A stretch of DNA of 64,000 nucleotides from a virus. The stretch spans positions 28,056 to 92,055 of IMG/VR virus record IMGVR_UViG_3300035698_019240. The stretch is one strand, 5' to 3'. The position numbers were made by a program, and so were the translations under genes. The notes beneath the pieces were generated by a model. That model searched no databases and was not told where the DNA came from. It worked only from the letters and a program-made list of their open reading frames with translations. This document shows, in pieces, positions 1 through 25,875 of this stretch; position 1 is the stretch's first letter, and the number at the start of each line of letters is the position of its first letter.

Positions 1-112
1 TCTTATTGATAAAATATCCGTTAACATGAATTCCGCTAAGGCCTTCGTCCCAAGGAAAAATTTCCTTTATCTTATCCAAACTCATTAGTTTTATCTTATC
101 TCCTGCTTTCAT
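1..112 (-). CDS. Partial small protein (MKAGDKIKLMSLDKIKEIF...), paralog of 330..635; runs off the window
   Basis: Manual translation; ATGA overlap with stop of 109..333. Confidence 0.7.
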   Translation of the reverse strand, partial: MKAGDKIKLMSLDKIKEIFPWDEGLSGIHVNGYFINK

Positions 113-333
113 ATCTCTATATCCTCAAACAATTCATCAACATCCATTATTGAGTCTTCTTTAGGTTTACAACCATCAAATTTTCGGTCTTCACCACCTA
201 TAGTTACAGTACAATCTATTGCACAATCATTTGTATATTTATGTTTACCTCTATGACTGCAATGCATCAATGGACAATTCCCTTCTATCCAACCATCACA
301 TTCCACAATTTCATGATATTCAATATCTCTCAT
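109..333 (-). CDS. Cys/His-rich small protein with conserved C-terminal tail
   Basis: Cys/His pattern; ends IMDVDELFEDIEI. Confidence 0.8.
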   Translation of the reverse strand: MRDIEYHEIVECDGWIEGNCPLMHCSHRGKHKYTNDCAIDCTVTIGGEDRKFDGCKPKEDSIMDVDELFEDIEI

Positions 334-635
334 ATGTCTATCTCCGAGAATAAGTCGTCTACATCCATTATGATTTCCTTATCTATCCACTTTTCACTAA
401 ATGCCCAAATACCCTCAGGACCTATTATATCAAAATCATAACCTCTCCCATTATTATTTTTCAATAAGTTGTTGATTCTCCATGACTTCCCGAACATATC
501 AAGCATAAAACCATTAATGTGTAGATTCCCAACATTAAAATTTCTACTATTAAGTATCTCTTTCAAACTGTATTGTAATTTTATTTGTCTAAGAGTTTTC
601 AGTTTTATCTTATCTCCTACTTTCATATCTTTCAT
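330..635 (-). CDS. Small protein with conserved C-terminal tail
   Basis: KVGDKIKL start; ends IIMDVDDLFSEIDI; body resembles 9049..9318. Confidence 0.8.
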   Translation of the reverse strand: MKDMKVGDKIKLKTLRQIKLQYSLKEILNSRNFNVGNLHINGFMLDMFGKSWRINNLLKNNNGRGYDFDIIGPEGIWAFSEKWIDKEIIMDVDDLFSEIDI

Positions 636-844
636 ATCTCTATATCCTCAAACAGTTTATCTACATCAATGATAGGACCATCATCTATTACTATCAATTC
701 TGACTCAGTGTATATAACCGTATTTGGTTGATAATCCCATCTAACATGTATAGGATAATGCAACTCATAGTCAACTATCTTAACAGTTCCATGCCTCTTA
801 AGGAGACCACTTTTTAACTTTACTCTATCATCGACTTTTATCAT
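632..844 (-). CDS. SH3/KOW-like small protein with conserved C-terminal tail
   Basis: KVDDRVKL...GTV...IHVRWD...ESEL; ends IIDVDKLFEDIEI. Confidence 0.8.
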   Translation of the reverse strand: MIKVDDRVKLKSGLLKRHGTVKIVDYELHYPIHVRWDYQPNTVIYTESELIVIDDGPIIDVDKLFEDIEI

Positions 845-1257
845 TATTCAATAGCCATGAGTACTTTTTTTACCAGGCTTCCATCTACTGTTCCTTTCAA
901 TTCTTTCATTATTGGTCCCATTGCTTTCATCTTATTATGAAATTTACTCAAGTCTACATTGGTCTTGATATACTCTTTTATGTCATCCTCGGATAGCAAA
1001 TTTTCTTCCGGCAAGTATCCTTCAACTATATCAAGATATGTAGAAGTTTTATATTTCTTAGCATCAAGTACCATCTTTTCGTTTTTCCTTAGACCTTTCA
1101 GGATGTATACCAATTCGGCATCTGTTACTACTTCACCTACCTTTTTGTTCAACCGTGGTACCTCACCAAGTATGACCCGTATAGCACTACTCCTCAATGG
1201 CGTCTCGGCCTTCATACTTTCTTTTAAGTCTTTTCGTAATCTTTCATATATAGTCAT
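844..1257 (-). CDS. GatB/YqeY domain protein
   Basis: DLKESMKA, YLPE..LSEDDI, MGPIMKELKGTVDG motifs typical of YqeY. Confidence 0.8.
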   Translation of the reverse strand: MTIYERLRKDLKESMKAETPLRSSAIRVILGEVPRLNKKVGEVVTDAELVYILKGLRKNEKMVLDAKKYKTSTYLDIVEGYLPEENLLSEDDIKEYIKTNVDLSKFHNKMKAMGPIMKELKGTVDGSLVKKVLMAIE

Positions 1258-1442
1258 TTACTAACTCCTTTCTTATTACAGTTTAATTGTTATAATTTCA
1301 CGATCCTCATCACTAGGTACCTCATGTTCAGCACACCATTCGTTGAACATACCTGTTGTTATATCAAATCCATCCTCCCAGTCTGTTACCTTTTTACAAA
1401 CAGTACAGTATTTTCTAAGTTGTTCATCATTGAAGTCCATAG

Positions 1443-1850
1443 TTATATCCTTTCTACAAAAAATGGTAAACAGAAATTGAATGTATGTTTACAGTCGGCA
1501 CACATTACATTTATTGACATTCCCCCTCTTGGTCCTCCACATATGTACTCACAACCACAATCAGGACAACACCTTTCTAATAGTATCCTTTTGAGTAGAG
1601 TGTCACTATCCATTTCAATTTTATCACATAAGGAGTCACATTCTTTCTCGCAGGGTTTACATGGGTATTTTACCTCAAGTATATCACCTCTAAGGGCTTC
1701 AGGAACTCTAACAAATCCCATCGACTTCCATCTTGGGTCTCCTGGCTGTATATCTTCATTAACCTTTTCTTTATTTTTAAGTATTGCTTCGACAAATACA
1801 AACACAAAAAATAATATCAAACCTATCAAACCTATTGTTGTCCATTCCAT
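1443..1850 (-). CDS. Membrane-anchored Cys-rich (Zn-ribbon) protein
   Basis: N-terminal TM; YPCKxC, CCPDCG, CxDCxH; paralog of 4444..4851. Confidence 0.7.
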   Translation of the reverse strand: MEWTTIGLIGLILFFVFVFVEAILKNKEKVNEDIQPGDPRWKSMGFVRVPEALRGDILEVKYPCKPCEKECDSLCDKIEMDSDTLLKRILLERCCPDCGCEYICGGPRGGMSINVMCADCKHTFNFCLPFFVERI

Positions 1851-2191
1851 TCCATTACTCTCCTTTATTCAATTTATTCTTAGCACGTTCATAGTTGTTC
1901 GTCCTATTAAGTAGTTCAGTATACTTATCCTTTTCTATACTATTGTAAAGTCCTAAAGCAATCAATATTAATACCATTAAAATATATTCCATTATCAGTT
2001 ACTCCTTTATTATATATTGTCTTTCACATTGATAACATTTCAAACCTTCAGGCAGTGTAACACCACAACTGGGACAATCAATATCATTTTCACTAATGAA
2101 GTGATCATTTTTCCTCAGGTTTTCAAGTCGTGTGATACCACCTATGCAATACTTTATCGTATCTAATATGTCTATCAAAAATCGTTTCATA

Positions 2192-2485
2192 TTATACCCT
2201 CGTATGACATTTATGTTCCCTACGTGCTTTGAAACTTCCCCTTAATTCCTCAACCAAAGACTCACACTCTTTACAAATGTATATTTCTATACCCTCTTCC
2301 TTCTTATCATACCATACAAATCGACTCTCTACCAGTTCACATTCCAATCGTTCCAGTTCACGTTCATAATTTTTGACTCGGTGCATTTGAGTCTTTGACA
2401 TCTGTTTCCTTTCTAAGATAATAATACCTTTAGAAATAAATACACCCAGTAAACAAAACACTATTGCAATTAAAATTATTTCCAT
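2192..2485 (-). CDS. Membrane-anchored Zn-finger-like protein
   Basis: N-terminal TM, YxCxxC...HxC; paralog of 2476..2790. Confidence 0.7.
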   Translation of the reverse strand: MEIILIAIVFCLLGVFISKGIIILERKQMSKTQMHRVKNYERELERLECELVESRFVWYDKKEEGIEIYICKECESLVEELRGSFKARREHKCHTRV

Positions 2486-2790
2486 TTTGTATCCTCATCT
2501 TCATCCTCTTCTCCATTATATTTTGCACATTCATGAATACTTCGTTGATACATGCTACCTATTTCCTCCTCAACCACTGTGCCACATACCAAACACATGT
2601 ATCGGTAATTACCCTTTTCATCTGTCCTAACAAAATGGAACATATTCTTTAACCGTTCACGTTCCAGCCGTGCCTTTATAGCTTCATAACTATCGGTTCG
2701 GGAATACAGTATCTTTCTCCACCTTTTTCTCTCCTTTTCGCTATAAACTATAATACATAAACATACAATTACAAACAATATCCATTCCAT
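2476..2790 (-). CDS. Membrane-anchored Zn-finger-like protein
   Basis: N-terminal TM, YMCLVCG...HEC. Confidence 0.7.
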   Translation of the reverse strand: MEWILFVIVCLCIIVYSEKERKRWRKILYSRTDSYEAIKARLERERLKNMFHFVRTDEKGNYRYMCLVCGTVVEEEIGSMYQRSIHECAKYNGEEDEDEDTKWK

Positions 2791-3006
2791 TATATTATCT
2801 CCTTTATCATTTAAGTCCTAACCGTAATACTATCCACCATACGATGAAAAATATTACAAAATATATCCATTCACTCATTGTCTATTCCCTTTATATTAGG
2901 TACATCACTCCTATCTTGATGGCTCCTATTAGCCACATGATTATCTTCACTACGCCTATTAGCCACGGGGCTATCAGGCATATAATACAACCAGGTACAT
3001 CCAGTT

Positions 3007-3261
3007 TTAATTTTTCTTCTGAAGGTTTTTTCCTTCATCCTCAACAGCCTTACTTTTGTATATTGGATGTCTCTGTCCACATGAAAGGCACATATATGTG
3101 TCCTTTTCAACGGCCTTACCCTTCTCTATCATACGAATTTTTAATATCATATCATACAATTCCTTATACTCTCTTACATGTTCTCCCTTATGACTTCTAT
3201 TATGATATATATCCTTCACCCATAGAAATACTAACACGATTACCAATACCATATACTCCAT
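3007..3261 (-). CDS. Membrane-anchored Zn-finger-like protein
   Basis: N-terminal TM, YMCLSCG..H. Confidence 0.65.
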   Translation of the reverse strand: MEYMVLVIVLVFLWVKDIYHNRSHKGEHVREYKELYDMILKIRMIEKGKAVEKDTYMCLSCGQRHPIYKSKAVEDEGKNLQKKN

Positions 3262-3533
3262 TATATCACATCCTTTATATACTTATCCGGCTCGTCAAAC
3301 GCCCACTCTGGTATGGTTATATTGTTGACCAATGTCCAAGCGTCATCCAGTCTAACACCACTCTTGTATAAATCAATGTGCCCTATCCATTTTTCATTCA
3401 ACACAAACTGGTCTGAATCAATCTTATACTTTTTACAGTAATACTTAACTATTATTTCGGCCGCCTTATTCATTTCCCATAAGGCATCTTTCCCTTTCCC
3501 TTGTGCTACCAGTAAATCTGTCACTAATCCCAT
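3261..3533 (-). CDS. Hypothetical protein
   Basis: Tightly packed ORF with GGAG SD. Confidence 0.6.
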   Translation of the reverse strand: MGLVTDLLVAQGKGKDALWEMNKAAEIIVKYYCKKYKIDSDQFVLNEKWIGHIDLYKSGVRLDDAWTLVNNITIPEWAFDEPDKYIKDVI

Positions 3534-3535
3534 TT

Positions 3536-3859
3536 TTATATCTCCTTTTTTCTTAAATGTTTATAGTAAGCTTTTATTAATTTATTTATTTTTTTCCATA
3601 CCGAATCAGGTCTTGGCATATTAACATATTCAAATGTAGGCGGTTTCTCCAAATACCTTTTCAATTCAAAGTACTTGCATTTACCATCTGAGTTTAGATC
3701 AGTACATTTCAATCTAACAATATTTCCAGTAATAGGACAGATGTTACTCTTATCATGCTTACACCTGTAACCAGATGCCCCAAATTCAACAGAAGGATTA
3801 TACAAACTATGTTTACATTCTTGACATATTATCATTTTATCTTTTGTTCTTTTACCCAT
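3536..3859 (-). CDS. Cys-rich hypothetical protein
   Basis: CxxCxH..C..C pattern; AGGA SD. Confidence 0.6.
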   Translation of the reverse strand: MGKRTKDKMIICQECKHSLYNPSVEFGASGYRCKHDKSNICPITGNIVRLKCTDLNSDGKCKYFELKRYLEKPPTFEYVNMPRPDSVWKKINKLIKAYYKHLRKKEI

Positions 3860-3896
3860 AATACATTTCCTTTACTGTTAAAGTTTTTATATACTT

Positions 3897-4184
3897 CTAC
3901 CATTTCCATCCGATAGTAATTTTATCGTACTGTTCAACCAAACCACCACTGTCCACTGGATGCCAACACATATGAGACATTTCAAAATACATACCCTGTT
4001 TGAAGATATCTACAGTTAATCCCAGGTCATATTTCACACTTGCTGGATGGAATCGTGTACTCTCACCCTCACCAACCGAGTCATCCATTAAGGTACTGAT
4101 ATTAGCCCATGGACGAAACATAAAATTCTTAGTATTAAACTTTCACCCTACCTCAATCTCCGCTATATACTCCGCCACATTCAT
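3897..4184 (-). pseudogene. Beta-strand-rich protein interrupted by an in-frame TGA at 4143-4145
   Basis: ATG at 4184 is ATGA-coupled to the upstream stop and in frame with 3897..4121: EIEVG*KFNTKNFMFRPW...TIGWKW. Confidence 0.5.
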
Positions 4185-4390
4185 ACTTTCAATTCTTTAA
4201 CTATCATCATACTTTCATATAACGGACACTTCTCTAATTTCTCCAGTGATATATTCTGATCCTCACCACACTCGTAAACACCTGCATCCGTATCGGCAGG
4301 GGTAAGCAACATTTCACATCCGTTTTCTTTACAATATTCTACATCCATTTTATATTCCTTTCTCTCATTTATGTATCCATTATAACACAC
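4181..4390 (-). CDS. Small Cys-containing early protein (probable start at MDVEY)
   Basis: First gene after the early promoter at 4379-4407. Confidence 0.6.
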   Translation of the reverse strand: MCYNGYINERKEYKMDVEYCKENGCEMLLTPADTDAGVYECGEDQNISLEKLEKCPLYESMMIVKELKV

Positions 4391-4407
4391 GATGACCTAT
4401 TTGTAAA
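4379..4407 (-). promoter_or_regulatory. Early sigma70-type promoter
   Basis: TTTACA-17-TATAAT with extended -10 TG. Confidence 0.8.
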
Positions 4408-4443
4408 TCCACCATTTTACACTGTCCTTTCAGTCACTTACTG

Positions 4444-4851
4444 CTACAGGCTCATCTTACTACACTTTAATCCTAAGAACATCCTCTCCACACGTGTAGG
4501 TTGTTCAAATCTGAAGCCATTAATATGAAAATAATGGCCGCAATCCTCACATTTCACATCTATTGTCCCTGGTCCACGACGCATCACAGGAACGAACAAT
4601 GACCCACAATCCGGACAGCACATGTGATTTGTTATCTTTTCCCTCAAGACATATTCATCCCTCTCCAGCAAGGAGCATAACTTTTCACACCCTGAATTGT
4701 ACATAAGACAACTCTTACATGGATATAACAAATCCTCCTTCATTTTCCGTTCATCCTTACATATATCCACCTTCAACTTTCTTATCATCCTCAACTTCTG
4801 AATGATCATCACTATCAATATCATTATTAAACTTATCGTAATTAATTCCAT
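4444..4851 (-). CDS. Membrane-anchored Cys-rich protein
   Basis: TM plus YPCKSC...CCPDCG...CEDCGH; paralog of 1443..1850. Confidence 0.7.
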   Translation of the reverse strand: MELITISLIMILIVMIIQKLRMIRKLKVDICKDERKMKEDLLYPCKSCLMYNSGCEKLCSLLERDEYVLREKITNHMCCPDCGSLFVPVMRRGPGTIDVKCEDCGHYFHINGFRFEQPTRVERMFLGLKCSKMSL

Positions 4852-5009
4852 ATCTCTATCTCCTTAAATAGTTCATCCACATCCATTATTGGTACTTCTT
4901 TAGGTATAAACATATCAAAAACAAAATCAGGAGTAGTCTTACATTCCTTACAGGGAGACAATCTCCAATTACGTCCTGAATAATAACATGTTGTACAATT
5001 CCTTTCCAT
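4842..5009 (-). CDS. 55-aa Cys-rich protein with conserved C-terminal tail (not in ORF track)
   Basis: Manual translation MERNCTTC...CKEC...[16 protein letters not shown]. Confidence 0.75.
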   Translation of the reverse strand: MERNCTTCYYSGRNWRLSPCKECKTTPDFVFDMFIPKEVPIMDVDELFKEIEIWN

Positions 5010-5147
5010 AATCCCTTACTTTCGTCTCCGTATACCTTTCTTATTTCTCTTATTCATATAACAATCCACAACTATCACTATCAAAGCTATACCCCACATC
5101 ACCAGGACAGCAACTCTTAGTTTTAGTATTATCGTAATTAATTCCAT

Positions 5148-5795
5148 TTAATTCACCAACCTTATGATAGGACCACACACATCCTTTGCTAAGTTACCAT
5201 AACTGATATCCTTACCGGCGGCATGTTTCCTTTTATGACATGGTACACACAAGCACTGTCCGTTCGGTGGGTCAAGAGCTAAATACTTCTTTCTCTTTAC
5301 AGGCTCTATATGGTGTACTTCCTCCGCCTGTCGTCCACACTCCTCACAGGTGGGATAATTCTTTTTATACTTCGCCATATTCCGTCGTCCAACTTCTTTC
5401 CTCCACGCCGCCCTTTCCGAACTTATGGTAACTACACCTATCCACTCTTCCGTCTCAACACCCAGTCTACTCCTCTCGCCCGCTTTCTCCAGGTAATCAA
5501 GACCTTTACCAAATACAGGACAGGAATGTTTACATCCATCACTGCAATAGAAATTATTACTCCCCGGCAGCCTCCCCTTTAAGACACCACTTCTATGTAG
5601 TACCTGATTCATCGTAGGTCGGAACACCTTCTCACACCCACTATAGTAACATCTAACATTCAGGACATCACTATCCTCAGGGTCCCGGAAACATTCATTA
5701 GCAGGATACAACTGTGGCTGATACAATTTATAACTCGGTAACTTATCACCATACTTCCATCCCATATCGTTATCTCCTCCACGGTAGGAAATCAC
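5148..5795 (-). CDS. HNH endonuclease with Cys-rich N-terminal domain
   Basis: CEECG...VHHI...NGQCLCVPCH; RDPED..LNVxCYYSGC domain shared with 5944 and 8028. Confidence 0.8.
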   Translation of the reverse strand: MISYRGGDNDMGWKYGDKLPSYKLYQPQLYPANECFRDPEDSDVLNVRCYYSGCEKVFRPTMNQVLHRSGVLKGRLPGSNNFYCSDGCKHSCPVFGKGLDYLEKAGERSRLGVETEEWIGVVTISSERAAWRKEVGRRNMAKYKKNYPTCEECGRQAEEVHHIEPVKRKKYLALDPPNGQCLCVPCHKRKHAAGKDISYGNLAKDVCGPIIRLVN

Positions 5796-5943
5796 AAATA
5801 CAAACCAACACTACATCCATAATAGTCACTAAGACCAACGCTATATTCATCACCATTTCCACTAACACATCAACCACTCTCACCAAGACCGTTATACAGT
5901 CCATCAATATATAAGCTATCACTTCAAGTACCGCCATCATACC

Positions 5944-6852
5944 CTACACCTTTCTTTTACATATTTTATTTGCTAACATTCCCGTACTACAGTCCTTATC
6001 TCCGGCAGGATGTCCTATTTTGTAGTGACACCTTTTACATAAGCACATACCGTTATTTGGATCCATTGCCTGTTCAGGATGTGTCTTAACCGGATGTATA
6101 TGGTGCACAACTTCTGCCGGCTCCTCACATTTCTCACAGGTAGGATGGAAATTATCGTATATCACTATGTTCCGTTCAATAACCTCAGTTCTCCATATGA
6201 CCCTCTCCGAAGCCGTGTATATAGTACCTTCCCATTCGTTATCTTCATCATGACCATTGTGTATCTTTATCAACGCTTCTTCCGCTCCCTTCACCGATTT
6301 ACCATATATAGGACACATATCCTTACAACCATCACTACAATAAAGATCACCACTTTTCCCACATGTTTTCATCGCATTAATCCTACGCCACACTTGACCT
6401 CTTGTAGGTCTGAACACCTTCCCACAACCACTATAGTAACATTTCACATTCAAAATATTACCATCCTCCGGGTCACGGGAACACTCATATCCAAGCAACT
6501 GTTCCGCATATAAATCATATCTCGGTATATCTCTTGTACCATACCCACCCTTCCAAGTAGGATTATTCACTCCACTAACTTTCCCCTTCGTCTCCTCAGT
6601 ATGTTTTTTTCCATACATAGGATGATTTTTTCCTCCACTCACAACACATTTATTATCACAATAATGAAATTTAGATTTACTACCTTTACTATAAAACATT
6701 TTTCCACCACAATTCCGACATATTCCTTCAAGATATAAATTAAAATCTATTTTACCACCCTTACCAACACCCTTTTTCCTCCATACTCCTTTCAATTTCA
6801 GGTGAGGTATCAAGATTTCTATACCAGTTTTATATTTCATTATTTTATCCAC
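5944..6852 (-). CDS. HNH homing-type endonuclease with NUMOD3-like motif
   Basis: GKKHTEETK, NNPTWKGG, CEKC...VHHI...NGMCLCKRCH. Confidence 0.85.
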   Translation of the reverse strand: MDKIMKYKTGIEILIPHLKLKGVWRKKGVGKGGKIDFNLYLEGICRNCGGKMFYSKGSKSKFHYCDNKCVVSGGKNHPMYGKKHTEETKGKVSGVNNPTWKGGYGTRDIPRYDLYAEQLLGYECSRDPEDGNILNVKCYYSGCGKVFRPTRGQVWRRINAMKTCGKSGDLYCSDGCKDMCPIYGKSVKGAEEALIKIHNGHDEDNEWEGTIYTASERVIWRTEVIERNIVIYDNFHPTCEKCEEPAEVVHHIHPVKTHPEQAMDPNNGMCLCKRCHYKIGHPAGDKDCSTGMLANKICKRKV

Positions 6853-6875
6853 TTTCCTTTCACTTTTACACTATA

Positions 6876-6904
6876 AGGATAACACATTTTTTACCCATTG
6901 TAAA
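6876..6904 (-). promoter_or_regulatory. Early promoter for left arm
   Basis: TTTACA-17-TATCCT with TG extension. Confidence 0.65.
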
Positions 6905-6911
6905 TCTATTA

Positions 6912-7950
6912 CATCTAAAATTTTGTGCGGACGGAAGTTGAATGTCCTAAGGTTTAACAGGTGTATTTGTAGTGTAGTCAAACGCACCTTCATATCCGTC
7001 ATCGCAAAAATTAGAAAATTTAGTGGCCTAAAGGTTTGGAGCAAAGGAGCACGCTCTCCGGTATAATCACAACCGCCTCAGACGCACGGGATTTCTTTTT
7101 CCTGTTCCAATCTTGCTCCAATCTCCCGTTAGTCACTATCACATCACGGCTACTGGGTTACTGTTCTCCTTTCTCACATCCCATACCACGGGATACACAT
7201 TACTCATGCACTTATTGATCAGGAGCACAGAGGCCTCGATCCTCTACACACCCAATACCATATTCCCGCAGGATAACATTTTTCCTGTGGGAAATGAGGA
7301 AATGTGTGGGATATTGAGATAATAAGACCCACGGCGCACAGGACTCGTTGGATATCGTTGGGATGGTGCGCGGTCTTCCACATGTGAAAGGAGGTCAATG
7401 GGTGTCAGAGTGTATGATCACTCGGACTCGCGTCAGCATATACAGAATCACGATGAAATCTGCTCCAGAATCCGGGAGGGGCCCGGAATTCAATCCTCAC
7501 TACATCTTGCGCAAACCTCTCAAAAACCACTAAACCGCCCTTTACTCACCCATATAATATAAGCAAAAACACACATTTTCCTGCTCCCGGAATCCTGGAG
7601 GGGAGGATTTGCGGTAAAGCCATGGTGTCAAAAGTTCCGACGATCTTTACCTGTCTCACTATCCGTCATTTTGCGCAGTTTATACTTTTCAATCCGGATT
7701 CCGGGAAAATCCACGATTCCCATCGGAGAATGCGTTTTTAGTGTCCAGACCCCTGGATATCTATAGTACATAACTTCTTTAATACTTGGAAAGTATATAA
7801 ATATTGCTTTTCCTTTATATTTGCTTATTTTTCACTGGATTCACGAAATCCTTAGATTAACACAAATGTCCTGATACTCTTTTCCTACTTTTCAATGGTA
7901 TTTGCGTAAATTGTCAAAATAGTCCCGGGCCAGCTCAATTTCAAAACGCC
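6912..7950 (+). ncRNA. Putative large structured non-coding element (RNA or folded ssDNA), family unknown
   Basis: No credible ORF; GC-richer than flanks; more than 10 hand-found stems whose G-T pairs work only on the + strand. Confidence 0.45.
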
Positions 7951-7974
7951 GGAAATGAAGGTTACAATATTATG

Positions 7975-8003
7975 TTTACATTTTATCAAAAATAATGTAT
8001 AAT
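7975..8003 (+). promoter_or_regulatory. Early promoter for right arm
   Basis: TTTACA-17-TATAAT. Confidence 0.8.
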
Positions 8004-8027
8004 AGGTATATGAAATAAAGGAATAAA

Positions 8028-8765
8028 GTGCAAATGAAATATAGTGGGAAAAAATCTAAACCATTTACTTTCTTACATAGTGGTGTCAAGCTTTTAAAAA
8101 ACACACCTGCAAAAATAAGAGAAAGTAAAAATAAAAGTACTAAGAATAGGTGCTATGGAGAAAATCATCCTGGATGGAAAGGTGGTTATAGTATAAAAGG
8201 TATACCAACATATGATACTTACGCTCCTAAACTCTTTGCGGATGAGTGTTCCCGTGACCCGGAGGATGGTAATATCTTGAATGTGAAATGTTACTATAGT
8301 GGTTGTAAAGAATGTTTTAGGCCAAGTATAGGACAAGTCAGTGCACGACTAACTGTTATAAAAATAGGAAATGATGGTAGAAATTTCTACTGCTCGGAAG
8401 AGTGTAAAAAATCTTGTTCTGTGTATCACATGAGAGTTGAATGGATTATGAACCAGAATGATGGTAGAAATTTTTCAGATAATGAGGATAGATGGTATAG
8501 AGACACCCAACCAGAATTACGGGCCATGTGCTTGGAAAGAGATGGTTATATTTGTCAAACATGTGGAAAGCATGAGAGTGATCTTGATGTTTCATTACAC
8601 TGTCATCATAGAGAAGGTGTATTTTGGGAACCATTGATGTCTGCTGATTTAGATATGGTTTTGACCGAGTGTGAAACATGTCATTATGATATACATAGAA
8701 AAGAAGGATGTAGGTCAGTGGATATGCAATGTCCATTTCTTGGAGCAGAAGGAGCGGATATATAG
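8028..8765 (+). CDS. HNH endonuclease, paralog of 5148/5944
   Basis: NHPGWKGG; ERDGYICQTCG..LHCHH...LTECETCH; shared CSRDPEDGNILNVKCYYSGC. Confidence 0.85.
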   Translation: MQMKYSGKKSKPFTFLHSGVKLLKNTPAKIRESKNKSTKNRCYGENHPGWKGGYSIKGIPTYDTYAPKLFADECSRDPEDGNILNVKCYYSGCKECFRPSIGQVSARLTVIKIGNDGRNFYCSEECKKSCSVYHMRVEWIMNQNDGRNFSDNEDRWYRDTQPELRAMCLERDGYICQTCGKHESDLDVSLHCHHREGVFWEPLMSADLDMVLTECETCHYDIHRKEGCRSVDMQCPFLGAEGADI

Positions 8766-8839
8766 GTGTGAATAATGGGGGTCCGTTAGGAATCGAAACA
8801 ACGATGTCCGAGGAATCGGAAAAGGAAAGGGCGTGAGTT

Positions 8840-9052
8840 ATGAAAAAAATAACAGTATGGAATCGGTTAGGAGAAAATGGTTGGAATCACAATCATATTG
8901 AGGACGGATGGGTTGAAGGATCTAAACCAAAGGCGAAAAAAGCTGAATTCAAAAGGCAGATTAGTGGTTGGAAAAATAATTTGTGGAGAAAGTCATATGA
9001 GTATTTGACTGTTGATAATAAAGTAATATGGTGGAATGGTGAAAATAAATGA
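8840..9052 (+). CDS. Trp-rich hypothetical protein
   Basis: ORF in early operon. Confidence 0.55.
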   Translation: MKKITVWNRLGENGWNHNHIEDGWVEGSKPKAKKAEFKRQISGWKNNLWRKSYEYLTVDNKVIWWNGENK

Positions 9053-9318
9053 AGAGAAAGATCATGAAAAAAGGAAGCATTATAGTATTAAAAACTTTGG
9101 AAGAATTAAAGAAGGGAAAAACATGTGTTGCTGATAGAGGTGGTATTTCAATAGATGGAAAATATATACGTCCGGATATGTACAACATGTTTGGGAAAAA
9201 GCATGTGATAGAAGACATATATTATGTATGGAATGGTAGTATTATTGAAATAAAACATGAACGAAGTAATTGGTATATAAGAGAAGAATGGATTGAAAAG
9301 GTATTGAAAGGAAAATAG
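9049..9318 (+). CDS. Hypothetical protein related to 330..635 but lacking the acidic tail
   Basis: LKTL, MFGK and W..xExWI motifs shared. Confidence 0.65.
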   Translation: MKRKIMKKGSIIVLKTLEELKKGKTCVADRGGISIDGKYIRPDMYNMFGKKHVIEDIYYVWNGSIIEIKHERSNWYIREEWIEKVLKGK

Positions 9319-9496
9319 TATGGAAAAGTATTCAAGAAAGTGGAAGTATGTTAGTAATGACAATGGTATAATTACCAAGAGATTGAAGGTTCCTAACGGT
9401 TGGATAGTTAAGTCCTGGATGGATGGTAGTCCTGATTCGTTGAATATGTTATTTGTTCCAGAAGATCAGGCACATTACTGGGAGTTAGAAAAATAA

Positions 9497-9748
9497 ATGA
9501 GTGCCATTCAAATAGGAGATAGAGTAATATTAACAACTGATAGGTACGATAGTAGTGCTATGAATCCTCGTTATGATAAAACAGGAATTAAAGGAAATGT
9601 AACGAGGATAGTATATATGGACAGAAAAACAAGGATATATGTTAAATGGGATACTGGAAGGAATAATGGATATGATGTGTCGGACTTAGAAGTTGCTGAT
9701 AACATCATCATTGATGTGGATGACCTGTTCTCGGAGATTGATATATGA
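9497..9748 (+). CDS. SH3-like protein with conserved C-terminal tail
   Basis: IGDRV..NP..G.V..YVKWDTG.NN.Y..SDL; IIDVDDLFSEIDI. Confidence 0.85.
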   Translation: MSAIQIGDRVILTTDRYDSSAMNPRYDKTGIKGNVTRIVYMDRKTRIYVKWDTGRNNGYDVSDLEVADNIIIDVDDLFSEIDI

Positions 9749-9972
9749 TAGTTGGAGATACAGTAAGGTTAACGACCGACAGGTATGGTAATTGTGATGT
9801 AAATCCTTGTTATGATAAAACAGGAGTTGAAGGAGAAGTAACTGATATAGAAGAAGGTACTATATATGTTAAATGGGATAATGGAAGGAATAATGTATAT
9901 GTTAAGTCGGACTTAGGAGTTATTCTTCCTATTATAGATGTGGACGACCTGTTCTCGGAGATTGAGATATGA
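9745..9972 (+). CDS. SH3-like protein with conserved C-terminal tail
   Basis: Close paralog of 9497; IIDVDDLFSEIEI. Confidence 0.85.
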   Translation: MIVGDTVRLTTDRYGNCDVNPCYDKTGVEGEVTDIEEGTIYVKWDNGRNNVYVKSDLGVILPIIDVDDLFSEIEI

Positions 9973-10211
9973 AGTTTAAAGTTGGAGATAGAGTAAAACT
10001 AATAACAAAAAGACATGGTGTAGGTTATTCTAATCCTTATTGGCCAAAATATGGAATAGAAGGTGTTATAACGGAAACATGGCAGGACATAACTTTTTAT
10101 GTCAAATGGGATAATACGGGGAAAAATAGTTATAGTTCTAATGATTTGGAATTAGTAGATGTTAAACCTCTTATAGATGTGGATGAACTGTTTGAAGGGA
10201 TAGAGATATGA
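9969..10211 (+). CDS. SH3-like protein with conserved C-terminal tail
   Basis: KVGDRVKL..NPYW..VKWDN; LIDVDELFEGIEI. Confidence 0.85.
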   Translation: MKFKVGDRVKLITKRHGVGYSNPYWPKYGIEGVITETWQDITFYVKWDNTGKNSYSSNDLELVDVKPLIDVDELFEGIEI

Positions 10212-10453
10212 AAGTCGGAGATAGAGTAAGGTTAACAAAGGATCGTTTTACATTGTGTGAGGAAAATCCAAAATGGCCTGAGTATGATGTTCTTGGTGTT
10301 ATTGCTTATATCGGAAATTCAAATATGGAAATGAATATAAGGGTAGATTGGGATAATGGACATAATAATATTTATGATAACTTTGATTTAAGAATTATAG
10401 AAGATAAACCTATTATAGATGTAGATGAACTATTTAAGGAGATAGAGATATGA
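10208..10453 (+). CDS. SH3-like protein with conserved C-terminal tail
   Basis: KVGDRV..NPKW..VDWDNG.NN.Y..DL; [13 protein letters not shown]. Confidence 0.85.
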   Translation: MKVGDRVRLTKDRFTLCEENPKWPEYDVLGVIAYIGNSNMEMNIRVDWDNGHNNIYDNFDLRIIEDKPIIDVDELFKEIEI

Positions 10454-11562
10454 TAGTTGGAATTTTAAAAGAGATTATGGATAGTGAAAATCGTGTTTCA
10501 ATGACTCCGGCAGGAGTCGAGGTAATTAAAAAGAATGGTCATACTGTTCTAATAGAAAAGGATGCCGGTAAAAAAAGTGGTTTTGAAAACAGTGAATATG
10601 TTAAGGCAGGAGGCAACATTGTATTAAAACCTGATGATATCTATAAATGCGCTGATATGGTAATGCATGTTAAAGAACCTCTACCTGTTGAATATGGATA
10701 TTTCAGAAAAGATCAGATTATCTTTACATTTTTACACTTGGCTGCAAAAAAAGAACTCACTAATACCCTTATAAGAAAACGTTCTGTTGCTATTGCATAT
10801 GAAACCATTCAAAAAAAGGATGGCTCTTTACCATTGCTTATACCCATGAGTGAGGTGGCTGGAAGGATGTCTATTCAGGCGGGAGCGAAGTGTCTTGAAA
10901 TGACCTATGGTGGTCAGGGCATACTACTCGGTGGAGTTCCCGGTGTACAGCCCGGCATGGTTGTAATTTTAGGCGGTGGTGTAGCCGGTGTAAATGCGGC
11001 GAAGATAGCATCAGGTTTTGGTGCAAGGGTTTACCTATTGGATATTAATCAGGAACGCCTACGATATTTGAGTGATGTTATGCCGAAAAATTGTTTTCCT
11101 ATAATGTCAAGTCCTTCAAAAATTCGTGAGTTATTAAAGGAAGCCGATCTTGTTGTAGGTGCTGTTCTAATACCAGGAGCCAAGGCCCCTAAACTTGTAA
11201 CAAGAGAAATATTAAAGACCATGAAAAAAGGTTCCGTTATAGTTGATATTGCTATAGACCAGGGAGGGTGTTTTGAAACATCCAAACCCACTACACATTC
11301 AAACCCGACTTACATTGTAGACGGTGTTATTCATTATTGTGTTGCAAATATGCCCGGAGCTGTGGCAAAAACTTCAACCCTTGCCCTTACTAATGTTACA
11401 TTACCTTATGCTGTTGATATAGCAAATAAGGGATGGGAAAAAGCGGCCAGGGAAAATCCTGAAATCATGATGGGATTGAATGTGGTAAAAGGAAAGGTAA
11501 CATGTAAAGGTGTGGCAGATGCTTTTAAACTTGAATATGCTCCTATTGAAAGTTGGGGATAG
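10450..11562 (+). CDS. ald: Alanine dehydrogenase
   Basis: [36 protein letters not shown] Rossmann motif, [22 protein letters not shown]. Confidence 0.97.
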
Positions 11563-11740
11563 AGTATATAACCAGAATCATGAGGGAATCGTTGTACGGA
11601 TTGATTATAATTTACGTCATCCAATATATGTTGAATGGGATGGTTCTTGTTTTCATTATTGCTACTATGCTAACGAATTGGGATTGTTGATTGAAAACAT
11701 CATAGATGTTGATGAGTTGTTTGAGGATATAGAGATATGA
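11546..11740 (+). CDS. SH3-like protein with conserved tail; start displaced by ald insertion (TTG)
   Basis: TTG AAA GTT GGG GAT AGA GTA = (M)KVGDRV overlapping the ald stop; IIDVDELFEDIEI. Confidence 0.7.
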   Translation: MKVGDRVYNQNHEGIVVRIDYNLRHPIYVEWDGSCFHYCYYANELGLLIENIIDVDELFEDIEI

Positions 11741-12009
11741 ATGCAATAACTGTTGAAATATTGATGAGTATATTTGGGGTTCTTACTTCTTTTCAAATAA
11801 TACCTCAATGTGTTAGGATACATCGTAGAAGAAAAAGTGACGATCTTAGCCTTTGGACTATGTATATTAGTATAATACAACAGGTTTTATGGTTAGGATA
11901 TGCTATTTGGAAACCTGTTATATGTCTAGTTGTAACAGAAGGTGTTTGGTTAACACTTTTAATAGTCTTGTTATGTTTTATATTTAAATATAGAGGAAAA
12001 AGAGATTGA
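11737..12009 (+). CDS. PQ-loop / SemiSWEET-family 3-TM transporter subunit
   Basis: IIPQ..RI.R.KSDDLS, LWLGYA; three hydrophobic helices in 90 aa. Confidence 0.85.
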   Translation: MNAITVEILMSIFGVLTSFQIIPQCVRIHRRRKSDDLSLWTMYISIIQQVLWLGYAIWKPVICLVVTEGVWLTLLIVLLCFIFKYRGKRD

Positions 12010-12012
12010 TAT

Positions 12013-12285
12013 ATGAGTACATTTATTGTTGAACTATTTATGACTATATTAGGCACAATTGGTGCTTGTCAAATAATACCTCAATGTGTTAGGATACATC
12101 GTAGAGAAAAAAGTGATGATATTAGCTTTTGGACTATTGGTATTAATATAATGTCCCAGTCAGTGTGGTTAGTGTATTCCTTTTGGAAATTTGTACCATG
12201 TATGATTATATCCGGTTCCGTTTGGTTAACACTTTTACTGATAATGTTAGGATTGGTAGTGAAGCATAGAGGGGAAAATAAATGA
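12013..12285 (+). CDS. PQ-loop / SemiSWEET-family subunit (tandem paralog)
   Basis: IIPQCVRIHRREKSDDIS, VWLVYS. Confidence 0.85.
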   Translation: MSTFIVELFMTILGTIGACQIIPQCVRIHRREKSDDISFWTIGINIMSQSVWLVYSFWKFVPCMIISGSVWLTLLLIMLGLVVKHRGENK

Positions 12286-12530
12286 AAAAATGGAAAGTAG
12301 GAGATAGGGTAGTACTGAATAACAACATTTATGGTGATAGTCCTAGTAACCCTTTTATAGACCAAACAGAAGGTACAATTAGAGAGGTTGATGATCCTTC
12401 TTTTTATGGTCAAAATATAGTAGTGGACTGGTTGAATGGTAGTCATAATTGTTATTATTCTAGTGATTTAAAGGAAGTTGAAGAAAATATAATAGATGTT
12501 GATGAACTATTTTCGGAGATAGATATATGA
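12282..12530 (+). CDS. SH3-like protein with conserved C-terminal tail
   Basis: KVGDRV..SNP..VDWLNG.HN.Y..SDL; IIDVDELFSEIDI. Confidence 0.85.
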   Translation: MKKWKVGDRVVLNNNIYGDSPSNPFIDQTEGTIREVDDPSFYGQNIVVDWLNGSHNCYYSSDLKEVEENIIDVDELFSEIDI

Positions 12531-12742
12531 AGTTAAAAATTGGAAACAGAGTGGCATGGTATGGAGATCAAAGTTTTACTCGTAAAGGAACAGTAAAGAA
12601 TATATCAAATATTTCCAAGTTTCCTTATTTAATACTATGGGATGATGGAAGTCGTGGATGGTACAGTGAATCATTTATAGTATTAATGGATGATGATAAA
12701 ATTATGGATGTTGAAGAATTATTTAAGGAGATTGAGATATGA
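12527..12742 (+). CDS. SH3-like protein with conserved C-terminal tail
   Basis: KIGNRV..GTV..WDDG; [13 protein letters not shown]. Confidence 0.85.
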   Translation: MKLKIGNRVAWYGDQSFTRKGTVKNISNISKFPYLILWDDGSRGWYSESFIVLMDDDKIMDVEELFKEIEI

Positions 12743-12990
12743 AGTTAAAAATTGGAGATGAGGTAAAATTAATAACCAAAAAGCATGGTATTAGTAATAA
12801 TAATCCTTACTGGCCCGATTATAAAAAAATAGGAACTATTGATCGTATACATAATACAGGGGGTCTGAATATTAGAGTTGTGTGGGAATTAGGAGGTATG
12901 TGTCATAATGTTTATAGTAGTTCAGATTTAGAATTGGTAGATGAACCTATTATGGATGTTGAAGAATTATTTGGAGATATAGATATATAA
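12739..12990 (+). CDS. SH3-like protein with conserved C-terminal tail
   Basis: KIGDEVKL..NPYW..HNVYSSSDL; IMDVEELFGDIDI. Confidence 0.85.
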   Translation: MKLKIGDEVKLITKKHGISNNNPYWPDYKKIGTIDRIHNTGGLNIRVVWELGGMCHNVYSSSDLELVDEPIMDVEELFGDIDI

Positions 12991-13223
12991 TGCGGAAAGT
13001 AGGAGATAGAGTAAAATTAACAAGTATAGTTCACGGTATATCTGATAGTAATCCATATTTTCTAAAATACAAAATCTTGGGAACCGTTTATAAAGTTTTA
13101 GGTTTAGAATGGACTTGTCCATTTAAAGTTAAATGGGATAATGGTATAAAGAATGGATATAATTCATGGGATCTAGAAGACTCGGAATATATTATTGGTC
13201 TTGATGAGTTGTTTGAATTATGA
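12990..13223 (+). CDS. SH3-like protein with degenerate tail
   Basis: KVGDRVKL..VKWDNG; IIGLDELFEL. Confidence 0.8.
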   Translation: MRKVGDRVKLTSIVHGISDSNPYFLKYKILGTVYKVLGLEWTCPFKVKWDNGIKNGYNSWDLEDSEYIIGLDELFEL

Positions 13224-13393
13224 TGATTTGTCCCATGGCTGATAAATGTATATGTTATACATGTACTCATAGAATACCTCATAAACACTGTGACGGTCTA
13301 TCATGTTTAAGACATGTTGATAATAAATGGCCTCATGTTTGTATACCACTTATCATTGATATAGATGATTTATTTTCTGATGTTGAAGTATAA
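13220..13393 (+). CDS. 57-aa Cys/His-rich protein with conserved tail (not in ORF track)
   Basis: Manual translation MMICPMADKC..CTHRIPHKHC...IIDIDDLFSDVEV*. Confidence 0.75.
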   Translation: MMICPMADKCICYTCTHRIPHKHCDGLSCLRHVDNKWPHVCIPLIIDIDDLFSDVEV

Positions 13394-13417
13394 ACCATAT
13401 TTGAAATAAATGCTTTA

Positions 13418-13446
13418 TTTACATTTTGTTTATTTTATGTTAAACT
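13418..13446 (+). promoter_or_regulatory. Early promoter
   Basis: TTTACA-17-TAAACT with TG extension. Confidence 0.7.
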
Positions 13447-13472
13447 AGATATAGAATTTAAAGGAGAATATA

Positions 13473-13685
13473 ATGGGTGAAAAGTTATTAGATAATGGAG
13501 ATCAATATTTACCAGAGCAGTATATTAAATACTGTGACAATTTACAGGAAGACAGTGAGGTCACATGGGACGATTTTTTTGATCATGTTAATCTTTCAAG
13601 TGATAAGAGGTCAGACTTTCTTATAGCTGCTATATATAAACAAGCACTGGAGACATTAAGTGTGGAAGTAGACTATCAAATATAA
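13473..13685 (+). CDS. Acidic hypothetical protein
   Basis: AAGGAG SD; follows early promoter. Confidence 0.65.
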   Translation: MGEKLLDNGDQYLPEQYIKYCDNLQEDSEVTWDDFFDHVNLSSDKRSDFLIAAIYKQALETLSVEVDYQI

Positions 13686-13921
13686 TGAGAAAAGGATTAA
13701 ATATAAATTGTATTCATTTTAAAGGTCCTTCAAGTTGTCCACGAAAACCTAAAAGACTTGGATTTTTAATGGCTAAATGTCATTTGGCTAACGATCTTAC
13801 AAAAACTTGTGCTATTCAGGAAAAATACCCAAGACCATCCCATCCACCTCCACCTCCACCACCAAAGAGAGTTATCAGTGAAGATGTAGGTTGGAAATAT
13901 ATAAAGAGAAGGAAAGGATAA
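13685..13921 (+). CDS. Cys-rich protein with poly-Pro tract
   Basis: Four Cys; HPPPPPPPK. Confidence 0.6.
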   Translation: MRKGLNINCIHFKGPSSCPRKPKRLGFLMAKCHLANDLTKTCAIQEKYPRPSHPPPPPPPKRVISEDVGWKYIKRRKG

Positions 13922-14092
13922 ATGTGGATAGATGATAAAAGTGATGGCTGTGTTTACGATACGGTAGACTGTGACCATAATTGTCTTGGATGTAACCATG
14001 GCTCTATGCAATGTACATCATGTGGACTTATTGTATATTATCCCGATAATAAATGTGACTGTGGTCATGTTTTGGAAGACAGAGATTTCTAA

Positions 14093-14299
14093 ATGGAAGA
14101 TTATGTAATATGTGATGCGTATGTAATTTGTGATTGGCATGGTAAATGTCATCATAAAAAACCTCATATTAAAGATTCTATGTGTGATATCAATGGATGT
14201 AATTGTGTAGATGGAAATGTTAGTTGTTCTCCTGTAAACACTGTTGATATATTGGATAAAAATGAAGTGGATGAATGGTTCAGAGAAATAGAATTGTAA
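14093..14299 (+). CDS. Cys/His-rich protein with divergent conserved tail
   Basis: CD..C.H.KPH..C..C..C.P as in 109..333; ends EVDEWFREIEL. Confidence 0.75.
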   Translation: MEDYVICDAYVICDWHGKCHHKKPHIKDSMCDINGCNCVDGNVSCSPVNTVDILDKNEVDEWFREIEL

Positions 14300-14328
14300 T
14301 TTACATAATTACATTTATATGATATAAT
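14300..14328 (+). promoter_or_regulatory. Early promoter
   Basis: TTTACA-17-TATAAT. Confidence 0.8.
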
Positions 14329-14354: not shown

Positions 14355-15287
14355 ATGAAGACAGCTGAAATTTTTAATAAGGCAATAGCAACAGGAATGG
14401 AGTTTGATCCTAGAGGTTTTAAAGAAGTAAGGAAGATTCTTGTAGATACAAAAAAACAATGGGATAAACTTAAAGAAAAGGATAAGGAATATTTTGATAC
14501 AGATAAATTATTGAATCCATATCCTGATTCAAGAATTCTATTTAACTTAGAAGATGGTGTTTCAAATGTGAAGAAGATACTTGTTGGTATTGATCTTGAA
14601 GGTCCTGAATTACTTCTCGCAAGTCATATAGGTGTTGATTTGGCTATAGCTCATCATCCAGAAGGTATGGGTTATGCAGGGCTTCCTGATGTTATGAGTA
14701 TGCAAGCCGATGTTCATCATCAATTAGGTGTTCCTATCAGTACCGCAACAGGACTTATACGGCATAGACAAAACGAGGTAAGAAAAAGTATAATGGGGTC
14801 AAACTTTTCAAGACCTATTGATTTTGCAAGAATTCTAGGAATACCATATATTTGTCTACACACTCCAGCAGATAATATGGTTCAGGCAAATGTACAGAGT
14901 ACGATTGATAAAGCTTCTCCTGAAACCCTTGGAGATATAATTGATATTCTTCTTGAGTATCCTGAATATAAAAAAGGTAAGAAAATGGGAGAGGGTCCTG
15001 TTATTCATGTTGGTTCAAAATCTAATAAAGCCGGTAAAGTATTTGTTGAATTCACAGGAGGTACAAGTGGAAACAAAAACATTTATCAGAGGTTGTCTTA
15101 TGCAGGTGTTGATACAATAGTTGGAATGCATATGGGTACTGAACATGAAAAAGAAGTTAAAAAATATAACATGAATGTTATTATTGCAGGACATTATTCA
15201 AGTGATTCAATTGGTATTACAAAACTTCTTGAGCAGATTTTACCAAAAGATGTTGAGATAATAAAATGTTCAGGTTACATAAGATAA
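14355..15287 (+). CDS. NIF3 (NGG1p-interacting factor / DUF34) family metal-binding protein
   Basis: KKILVGID, AHHP, HTPADN, AGHYSSD. Confidence 0.8.
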   Translation: MKTAEIFNKAIATGMEFDPRGFKEVRKILVDTKKQWDKLKEKDKEYFDTDKLLNPYPDSRILFNLEDGVSNVKKILVGIDLEGPELLLASHIGVDLAIAHHPEGMGYAGLPDVMSMQADVHHQLGVPISTATGLIRHRQNEVRKSIMGSNFSRPIDFARILGIPYICLHTPADNMVQANVQSTIDKASPETLGDIIDILLEYPEYKKGKKMGEGPVIHVGSKSNKAGKVFVEFTGGTSGNKNIYQRLSYAGVDTIVGMHMGTEHEKEVKKYNMNVIIAGHYSSDSIGITKLLEQILPKDVEIIKCSGYIR

Positions 15288-25177: not shown

Positions 25178-25875
25178 TTATACCTCTACTCCAGCATTTC
25201 TTAAAAAATCACGAAGGTCATTTCCTGCTTTAACAAACTTTTTTCTTAAAGTGTGAAACTTAGAATTTTTTATTTCTGAGAAATTACTATAATCCATAAA
25301 TCCATAACCAAATCCTTCATTATCCATAATACCTGATAAATCTTCAACATCCTCATCACTCAATTCTTTTTTTATAACTTCATTTATATACTCATCTATT
25401 TTTTCAGTTATCATTGTTGCTCCTTAATAAATATAACCTTTTAATTCATTTGTAGCTTTAATAAACTTTTTTCTTAAAGCGTGAAATTTTTTATCTTGTA
25501 TATTTTTAAAACTTGATCCAAAATCAAGAAATGCTTGTTCAAATCCTTCCTTCTCTATAATCGTATCTATATATTCAAAATCATCTTCACTCAATCCTTC
25601 GTTTAAATACTCATCTATTTTTTCTGTTATCATATTAATTTCCTTTTCTATAAAAAATCTATCATTGACTTTAGATGTTTAATTTCATTATCCATATTAT
25701 AAATTAAATCAAAAGCTTCCGCTTCCTTTCCACTTTTTATTTTCTTCTTTACATTATTTAACTGTTTAATAATATCATCTATCATATTAATTTTTCTTTT
25801 TTGACCGGTTTTCACTTCATCAACCTTTTTATCGTTAGCTTCATTTAAATATTCATCTATTTTTTCTGTTATCAT
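25178..25875 (-). CDS. Three small tandem genes (25178, 25424, 25648) starting MITEKIDEY(I/L)NE; putative internal head proteins
   Basis: Near-identical N-terminal leaders; the first two share KFHxLRKKF. Confidence 0.7.

Follow-up and report, generated by a model that had tools for sequence, protein, structure and literature searches.

The sliding clamp of T4-type phages binds the similar and interchangeable C-terminal ends, both hydrophobic and acidic, of gp43, gp55 and gp33 (PMC2988020). Here we describe a C-terminal peptide tag on small early proteins of a T4-like phage, the virus record IMGVR_UViG_3300035698_019240. The window, i.e., the whole stretch of DNA that was analysed (64,000 nucleotides), is the right-hand 64 kb of this 92,055-base record, bases 28056-92055. 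In its long form the tag is a 14-residue, acidic and hydrophobic tail with the consensus aliphatic-(I/M)-D-V-D-E-L-F-x-x-I-(E/D)-I. Like the tag, the T4 clamp epitopes are common to otherwise unrelated proteins of the T4 family and can be exchanged between their carriers (PMC2988020). Unlike the epitopes, which belong to three replication and transcription proteins, the tag is present on 24 small early proteins. It is also longer, doubles as a gene junction and differs in sequence from the gp43 ends of the same clade. The latter (L087, L112-L116) read Q-x-(A/S)-F-N-x-F-F-G(G) and are PIP-box-like and non-acidic, unlike the acidic LDFLFG of the T4 type. The gp43 of a cyanophage ends in TITSFFG.

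Other short motifs also resemble the tag. The tail of the single-stranded DNA-binding protein (SSB) is an acidic run ending in I-P-F, the beta-clamp motif is QL(S/D)LF, and both dock on a hydrophobic pocket of their hub. Like the tag, they are acidic and hydrophobic short linear motifs, often located at the extreme C-terminus. Of the beta-clamp pentapeptide, the tag has only positions 3-5, in its D/E-L-F; at positions 1-2 it has V-D or D/E-D/E, and both the leading Q and the hydrophobic second residue are absent. The end of the SSB tail is not mimicked, as P-F was absent from all 24 tails and 29 short tags. One SSB tail serves many partners; if the tag is a docking motif, many carriers would share one partner, as the clamp ligands do. 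Ordinary ATGA-coupled gene junctions are similar to the tail ends in another respect: the stop and start codons overlap, and the Shine-Dalgarno (SD) core lies 8-10 nucleotides upstream, inside the preceding gene. In the tails, too, the stop overlaps the next ATG, with a purine-rich SD core upstream. Unlike an ordinary junction, however, this one is a conserved reusable module inside a selected peptide.

Two further systems are alike by principle. Viral adaptor families such as the ankyrin/PRANC proteins of poxviruses join variable heads to one C-terminal element (F-box-like in PRANC) that plugs into a host machine. By concept the poxvirus proteins resemble the tagged proteins, being a large paralogous and non-paralogous set with a small C-terminal element. 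However, they belong to eukaryotic viruses, and PRANC is a folded domain of about 50 residues with Skp1/cullin as the partner, whereas the tag is a linear peptide of 6-14 residues in phages. The capsid-targeting sequence of T4 is likewise a short peptide shared by unrelated cargo of a T4-type phage. It is N-terminal, is cleaved after (I/L)xE and marks late or packaged proteins, whereas the tag is C-terminal and belongs to sigma-70-type early operons. The tag contains no constant (I/L)xE site, and L-F-E was found in 8 of 23 tails.

The original prediction, made from the letters of the window, named 15 open reading frames (ORFs) with a shared C-terminal tag. All of them exist, and all end in the tail or a close variant. 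Two of these ends need a qualification: the ORF at 12990 carries only the truncated form IIGLDELFEL, and the tail of the ORF at 4842 is followed by two extra residues, WN. A profile scan beyond these ORFs had been suggested as well. Our scan of the whole record added nine tail genes immediately to the left of the window, which brings the total to 24, and relatives were found to carry the tail or a short core of it. The 24 genes have 55-101 codons each and lie within genome positions 25410-42354 (17 kb). No tail gene was found in the remaining 75 kb of the record. The region is a divergent early region with 13 tail genes on the minus arm and 11 on the plus arm. Sigma-70-type sites TTTACA-17-TATAAT are present at 7975-8003 (+), 4407-4379 (-) and 14300-14328 (+), which fits early operons.

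To describe the variation of the tail, 23 full tails were aligned codon by codon. In the DVDELF codons, the proportion of synonymous differences (pS) was 0.757 and that of non-synonymous differences (pN) was 0.077, i.e., pN/pS was 0.10. The synonymous variation that had been pointed out in DVDELF is real, and the synonymous sites are near saturation. Valine is encoded by GTA, GTT or GTG, leucine by CTA, CTG, TTA or TTG, and aspartate, glutamate and phenylalanine each by both of their codons. The switching of leucine between CTN and TTR and the use of three valine codons indicate selection on the peptide and not on the DNA or RNA. Thus, the front part of the tail, its first eight residues (I-I/M-D-V-D-E-L-F), is maintained by peptide-level selection.

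The last five codons (x-x-I-E/D-I) gave another picture, with pS of 0.37 and pN of 0.22. In the two variable residues alone, pS was 0.40, pN was 0.37 and pN/pS was 0.93. The first of these residues is K, E, S or G and the second is E, D or G, encoded by AAG GAG, GAG GAT, TCG GAG, GAA GGG or GGA GAT. These codons always retain a GGAG or GAGG core, followed by an 8-nucleotide spacer and then by ATA TGA, which contains the ATG of the next gene. A GGAG, GAGG or AAGG core stands at -15 to -12 from the stop in 20 of the 20 full-length coupled tails. As for the coupling itself, the ATGA overlap is present in 19 of the 24 tails, while a further one shows TAATG and in another the ATG falls within the tail. 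An SD-like core is missing from the truncated tail at 13223, which does have the ATGA overlap. The genes started by tails include the unrelated genes of alanine dehydrogenase, a SemiSWEET-like carrier, a membrane peptide and a methyltransferase-like protein. In addition, 15 nucleotides of the tail are reused out of frame between two SemiSWEET genes and give the start of the second one. The last five codons therefore double as peptide and as the SD core, spacer and ATGA of the next gene, so that each tagged gene supplies the translation start of the gene behind it. An explanation of the tail by SD constraint, which would have spoken against the original prediction, largely holds for these five codons (pN/pS 0.59), but only for them, and fails at DVDELF.

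Even so, the end of the tail is not shaped by the junction alone. In the uncoupled tails that end at 13393 and 14299, the SD core is lost and the codons differ, but the pattern x-acid-aliphatic-acid-aliphatic is still there. The last codon of the tail encodes Ile, Val or Leu throughout, though the overlap requires merely a final A. Together, these two observations indicate that some peptide-level pressure reaches the end of the tail. The original prediction had placed both of these tails in front of promoters. Both are indeed uncoupled, and a TTTACA-17-TATAAT site follows the tail at 14299, but only a weaker site follows the one at 13393.

Tails can also be exchanged between genes. The last 57 nucleotides are identical in a family-B gene of the minus arm and a family-A gene of the plus arm (the families are described below), while the median longest run shared between tail regions is 10 nucleotides. 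The 57-nucleotide identity on different families means that tails move between unrelated genes. The view of the tag as a detachable module thus stands: besides the tail shared by two families, there is a tail-less homolog, 9049-9318, of the tailed gene 330-635 (28% identity). As a separate observation, Logan contigs (runs X1-X3) join minus-arm tails to a plus-arm tail in inverted orientation, position 1 with 11699 and position 109 with 11690. The cause is either a collapse of the assembly graph at the repeat or a genuine inversion between tail copies that lie in opposite orientation.

A shorter form of the tag was found in related phages. In G004, a 98% complete record with a capsid protein 61% identical to that of the window phage, there are two SH3-like homologs, and both end in EDLF-x-L. 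We scanned the records with a DNA pattern for (D/E)(D/E)-L-F-x-aliphatic-stop and used the reversed pattern as a control. The scan gave 11 matches in G004, 7 in the 51-kb fragment G008, 3 in G007 and 2 in G003, and the control gave 0 or 1 in each record. The record of the window phage had a single match, the short-tailed gene 12990-13223. A T4-type coliphage (166 kb) had no match, and a cyanophage (189 kb) had one. The proteins with the short core share the consensus hydrophobic-x-(D/E)(D/E)-L-F-x-(I/L/V)-COOH, and the codons again vary synonymously. At least six tags of G004 and all tags of G007 stand before TAA or TAG, after which there are gaps of 44-110 nucleotides or terminator-like hairpins and no overlapping start. 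The 53 tagged proteins of five records fall into 32 BLAST clusters, mostly singletons. In the PHROG search, 9 of 10 tagged G004 proteins had no match, and neither had a 201-residue G004 protein ending in DLFEMFP. By sequence comparison, about 30 unrelated small orphan proteins in related T4-like phages thus have the short core, whether or not a coupled gene follows. The tag is therefore older and wider than the junction of the window phage, and selection acts on the peptide independently of that junction.

The long tail itself is known from metagenomic relatives of the tagged proteins. A profile search for the SH3-like head among 1.84 billion representative proteins yielded 1126 relatives. About 17 of the best 150, on other metagenomic contigs, carry the long tail with IEI, IEL or IDV ends. 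Many other SH3-like relatives end in a shorter form of the ELFEL, ELFEI or DLFII type, and others end differently. The long tail is also present on relatives of families B and C from other samples, whose heads are 30-45% identical; in one relative the tail is followed by an extension. In all, the three families keep the tail in other metagenomes with heads that are 30-58% identical. The long-tailed relatives are all singletons on contigs of 0.5-5 kb. DNA-pattern and profile scans for the long tail found nothing in IMG/VR. The long-tail scans gave four matches in JGI metagenome contigs and 20 single matches in GTDB genome contigs, all of them chance matches. One of the GTDB matches is the C-terminal helix of what we take, by eye, to be a LysR/CysB-type regulator of Pseudoalteromonas, and another is an internal motif, presumably of methylmalonyl-CoA mutase, also read by eye. 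The LysR/CysB-type protein was seen in several gammaproteobacterial genomes (L091, L093, L098, L110) as a 280-residue protein with the end ...DVDELF(K/T)DIELP..., which is very like the tail; we judge the helix to be similar by chance or convergence. Neither megablast nor tblastn matched the long tail to an INPHARED phage. No long tail was found in ten relatives chosen by capsid or DNA-polymerase similarity; several of them, fragments of 13-60% completeness, were also without the short tag.

The 24 tails are attached to different heads: 13 SH3-like (family A), four of family B, six of the Cys/His family (C) and one CxxC...CxxC protein. Members of family A are 33-58% identical to each other. 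The AlphaFold model of family A has five strands and a mean predicted local distance difference test score (pLDDT) of 84.9. Its best Foldseek matches, at E of about 1e-2, are 2heq (the B. subtilis prophage protein YorP), PsaE and HERC2/MIB domains. Pfam matches were only below threshold, and the PHROG matches were phrog_11307 and phrog_9469 (E of 9e-11 and 3e-8), both without an assigned function. Thus, with a five-stranded beta-barrel and these two matches, family A heads correspond to small SH3-like phage proteins. Family B comprises proteins of about 100 residues, four tailed members and the tail-less paralog 9049-9318. Its model has weak matches to SH3-like folds, and the family is probably SH3-like. 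Families A and B show sequence similarity over the first 14 residues only (hhalign probability 36%). Family C has the pattern C...C...C-x-H-(R/K)-x-P-H...C and is unrelated to A and B by profile comparison; the ESM Atlas yielded nothing usable for it. The claim of at least three unrelated head classes is thus borne out for the Cys/His family, but the SH3-like and MFGK (family B) heads share their first 14 residues. Overall, the four sequence families represent two or more unrelated folds. In two AlphaFold models, pLDDT is 85-95 for the heads and 54-57 for the tails, which form a single helical turn at DELF. By composition and pLDDT, the tag is therefore short, hydrophobic and acidic, lies at the very C-terminus and is predicted to hang on a flexible linker, as clamp epitopes do. 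The net charge of the heads ranges from -7 to +5, and the idea that the tail balances the charge of basic heads was rejected for this reason. Among 13-17 SH3-like proteins there are also two proline-rich proteins, 13685-13921 (+) and L085:3343-3885 (-). A run of seven prolines followed by K-R is present in one of them, and a repeated PPPVPDKPTLPPP in the other.

We propose, with a probability of about 0.55, that the tag is a portable C-terminal short linear motif that docks its carriers to one common partner. Selection, portability, predicted flexibility, diverged heads and unrelated carriers all fit a shared docking motif. From a selected shared peptide we infer the binding of one partner. 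The hydrophobic face (the aliphatic residue, V, L-F, I and I) and the acidic flank would contact this partner, which may be one of the core proteins of the phage or a conserved machine of the host. Via the tag, a variety of small host-takeover proteins would be brought to one place. In the window phage, the motif would have been lengthened and fused to the gene junction. New tagged and translationally coupled genes would then be easy to create by recombination. The broader idea is that the T4-like clade labels its accessory proteome, dozens of unrelated orphans per genome, with an address tag for one hub, and that the 14-residue tag-junction of the window phage is a plug-in cassette, in which an ORF inserted between two junctions by recombination would be coupled and tagged at the same time. 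To this we give slightly less than even odds.

Several points weigh against docking. Most of what is seen in the last third of the tail is accounted for by the SD/ATGA junction at the RNA level. Residues follow the tag in two copies (4842 in the window and P0161 in a relative), i.e., a free C-terminus is not strictly kept. The idea of docking is drawn from analogy with other C-terminal motifs. The record is 47% complete, and the replication and late-transcription genes of the phage are outside the inspected sequence. Finally, recombinational exchange of tails could inflate the apparent conservation. Exchange alone would not yield an excess of synonymous over non-synonymous differences, however. 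The original prediction had seen in these proteins adaptors that link many targets to a shared hub. The docking part of this view gains from the selection on the peptide, the portability of the module, the predicted flexibility of the tail and the clade-wide core, and the view loses ground at the last five codons and with the clamp and PrkA as hubs; an adaptor role of the heads with different targets is speculative. PrkA was rejected as the hub, as it is absent from the tag-rich G004 and present in G001, G002 and G005, in which no tags were seen, i.e., there is no co-occurrence.

A special case of docking would be a turnover signal (degron) by which the tagged host-takeover proteins are handed to a host or phage AAA+ protease and removed on schedule. 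The C-terminal position and the flexible tail agree with a degron, and the phage encodes a PrkA-type AAA+ protein. Short forms in G004 end in four or five non-polar residues (ELFIL, ELFII, ELFLL), and non-polar C-termini reportedly destabilise proteins in E. coli, according to work on C-terminal degradation determinants. A degron nevertheless appears unlikely. The long form ends in a charged/aliphatic alternation (EDIEI), not in an end of the ssrA (LAA) or MuA type; all tails end in I-(E/D)-I or L-F-x-(I/L/V), and L-A-A or RRKKAI-like ends are absent. The distribution of PrkA, missing from G004 in spite of its completeness of 98% and present in three records where no tags were found, also disagrees with this role. 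Instead of an external hub, the tags could bind each other as amphipathic helices that bundle the proteins into homo- or hetero-oligomers. In the 13-residue tail, the spacing of the hydrophobic residues (positions 1, 4, 8 and 11) agrees with the a/d pattern of a helix. Each tail has a net charge of -3 to -6, which would oppose bundling, although in the salt-lake habitat high salt could screen the acidic repulsion. A stable bundle would need more than the 6-8 residues of the short clade-wide form, and no positive computational evidence was obtained. Self-association is, therefore, quite improbable.

The tag could also be an epitope of the gp45 sliding clamp, as on T4 gp43, gp33 and gp55, so that the small proteins ride on the clamp. 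The gp43 of a Tequatrovirus ends in ...ASLDFLFG and has D-x-L-F in common with the tag. However, six gp43 proteins of the clade end in QNQAFNFFFGG, QNQAFKAFFG, QNQSFNAFFGG, NEAFNAFFK, QNQAFNLFFGGSQQ and EMALDIFFE (the last one being a 43%-identical outlier). Judged from these six relatives, the gp43 C-terminus is mostly non-acidic, PIP-box-like and unlike the tag, and no other ORF of at least 50 amino acids in G004 ends in a gp43-like motif. On the record itself, DNA polymerase B (gp43) and the gp45 clamp domain were not detected, and gp55 and gp33 were not searched for; gp45 was not found in the relatives by PF09116 either. The T4-type clamp is thus an unlikely hub, and we leave the epitope a slim chance. 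A further explanation dispenses with binding: the tail would be a by-product of a gene-junction cassette (SD, ATGA and recombination homology), and the peptide would have no function of its own. Its 3' end is indeed a working junction that is reused even out of frame, the 57-nucleotide identical copies on unrelated genes point to recombination at tails, and the Logan contigs mentioned above join different tails of opposite strands. This is largely refuted by the front eight codons, where the synonymous sites are saturated and pN/pS is 0.10. Moreover, the peptide persists in tails that have no coupled gene, the core is followed by TAA/TAG and terminators in G004 and G007, and the same operons contain many coupled junctions that lack a tail. 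A mere by-product is hardly probable. Finally, the nascent peptide might slow termination at a weak UGA and allow the ribosome to re-initiate at the overlapping ATG. Termination is reportedly weakened by acidic penultimate residues, and a nascent peptide is able to stall the ribosome at a stop codon. The combination of UGA and ATGA overlap in 19 of 24 tails agrees with this. However, the peptide is kept at uncoupled TAA/TAG ends, both here and in G004 and G007, and in two proteins, 4842 and P0161, further residues separate the tag from the stop, which leaves such a role a very small chance.

In open-access papers and preprints, we found neither the motif nor a comparable phage tag described. 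Docking via shared C-terminal motifs is a known principle; what is unusual here is the large and diverse set of carriers and the dual-coded junction. Most of the small early genes of phages are orphans whose function is hard to approach; for such genes, a shared selected tag on about 30 unrelated families is one experimental handle. If docking is correct, each head would be a candidate for binding a component of its own in the host or the phage. Peptide and RNA constraints overlap compactly in the tag DNA, which also serves as ribosome-binding site and as start of the gene that follows. The tag-junction also suggests a possible mechanism for the rapid modular gain of accessory genes.

The individual tagged genes are arranged as follows. 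On the minus arm, the N-terminal part of a family-B ('MFGK') tail gene occupies 1-112 (-); its tail TIIDVDELFEGIDI with the stop TAA lies 184 bases left of the window. Next to it are three genes with the ATGA overlap: a 74-residue protein of family C at 109-333 (-) with the tail SIMDVDELFEDIEI, a 101-residue protein of family B at 330-635 (-) with the tail IIMDVDDLFSEIDI, and a 70-residue protein of family A at 632-844 (-) with the tail PIIDVDKLFEDIEI. The 55-residue CxxC...CxxC protein is encoded at 4842-5009 (-), where WN follows the tail and the ATG of the next gene is inside the tail DNA. On the plus arm, the tail-less family-B paralog at 9049-9318 (+) ends in ...EKVLKGK and has 28-30% identity. 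It is followed by four SH3-like tail genes in a row joined by ATGA, 9497-9748, 9745-9972, 9969-10211 and 10208-10453 (+), and the last tail provides the start of the alanine dehydrogenase gene. The tail of a short SH3-like gene, 11546-11740 (+), provides the SD and ATG of the first SemiSWEET-like gene. The footprint of the tail 3' end, 15-16 nucleotides long, stands at 12001-12016 (+), AGAGATTGATATATGA, out of frame with the upstream SemiSWEET gene. Another row of four SH3-like tail genes occupies 12282-12530, 12527-12742, 12739-12990 and 12990-13223 (+). The truncated tail of the fourth equals the short clade-wide form. Two genes of family C close the array. The 57-residue protein at 13220-13393 (+) has the tail LIIDIDDLFSDVEV and a TAA stop, with no coupled gene and no SD core. 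The 68-residue protein at 14093-14299 (+) has the degenerate tail EVDEWFREIEL and a TAA stop, after which the TTTACA-17-TATAAT site begins.

The record is assigned to a T4-like myovirus, its completeness being a CheckV estimate. The major capsid protein is 60-67% identical to those of uncultured IMG/VR phages and about 37% identical to those of Pelagibacter phage HTVC008M, cyanophages and Sinorhizobium phages, and the large terminase is of the T4 type. The identical sequence is present in at least six salt-lake metagenome runs, and no RNA run is listed among the sequencing runs that contain the phage. Contigs from four of the salt-lake runs match the tag region without differences and thus provide no population-level substitutions. 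This identity means that the tag array is not an assembly artefact of one sample.

Several neighbouring genes may also be mentioned. A complete PrkA (AAA_PrkA and PrkA C-terminal domain), DUF444 (YeaH/YhbH-like) and SpoVR (YcgB-like) form a trio at 31533-37303 (-), among the late genes between the terminase and capsid genes. Of the relatives, G001, G002, G005 and G009 have PrkA as well, and G003 and the near-complete G004 lack it. At the centre of the divergent early arms, about 1.1 kb (6870-8027) contains no credible ORF and has a GC content of 0.40, above that of its surroundings. Rfam and tRNA scans of this central kilobase were empty. It is flanked by HNH/NUMOD3 endonuclease paralogs at 5148-5795, 5944-6852 and 8028-8765. 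The minus arm also encodes tail-less small early proteins at 1443-1850, 2192-2485, 2476-2790, 3007-3261, 4444-4851 and 5016-5147 (-). They have an N-terminal hydrophobic segment starting with ME(W/L/I)I..., followed in most of them by CxxC-type cysteine clusters, and are probably membrane-anchored zinc-ribbon proteins. According to Pfam, auxiliary genes inside the tagged arrays encode a YqeY-like protein at 844-1257 (-), alanine dehydrogenase at 10450-11562 (+), two tandem PQ-loop/SemiSWEET-like proteins of 90 residues at 11737-12285 (+) and NIF3/DUF34 at 14355-15287 (+). Directly downstream of the last minus-arm tail gene, an ORF of 162 amino acids (L085:3925-4413, -) starts at the ATGA of the tail; it has no Pfam match and contains a DPPY motif typical of N6-adenine/N4-cytosine DNA methyltransferases.

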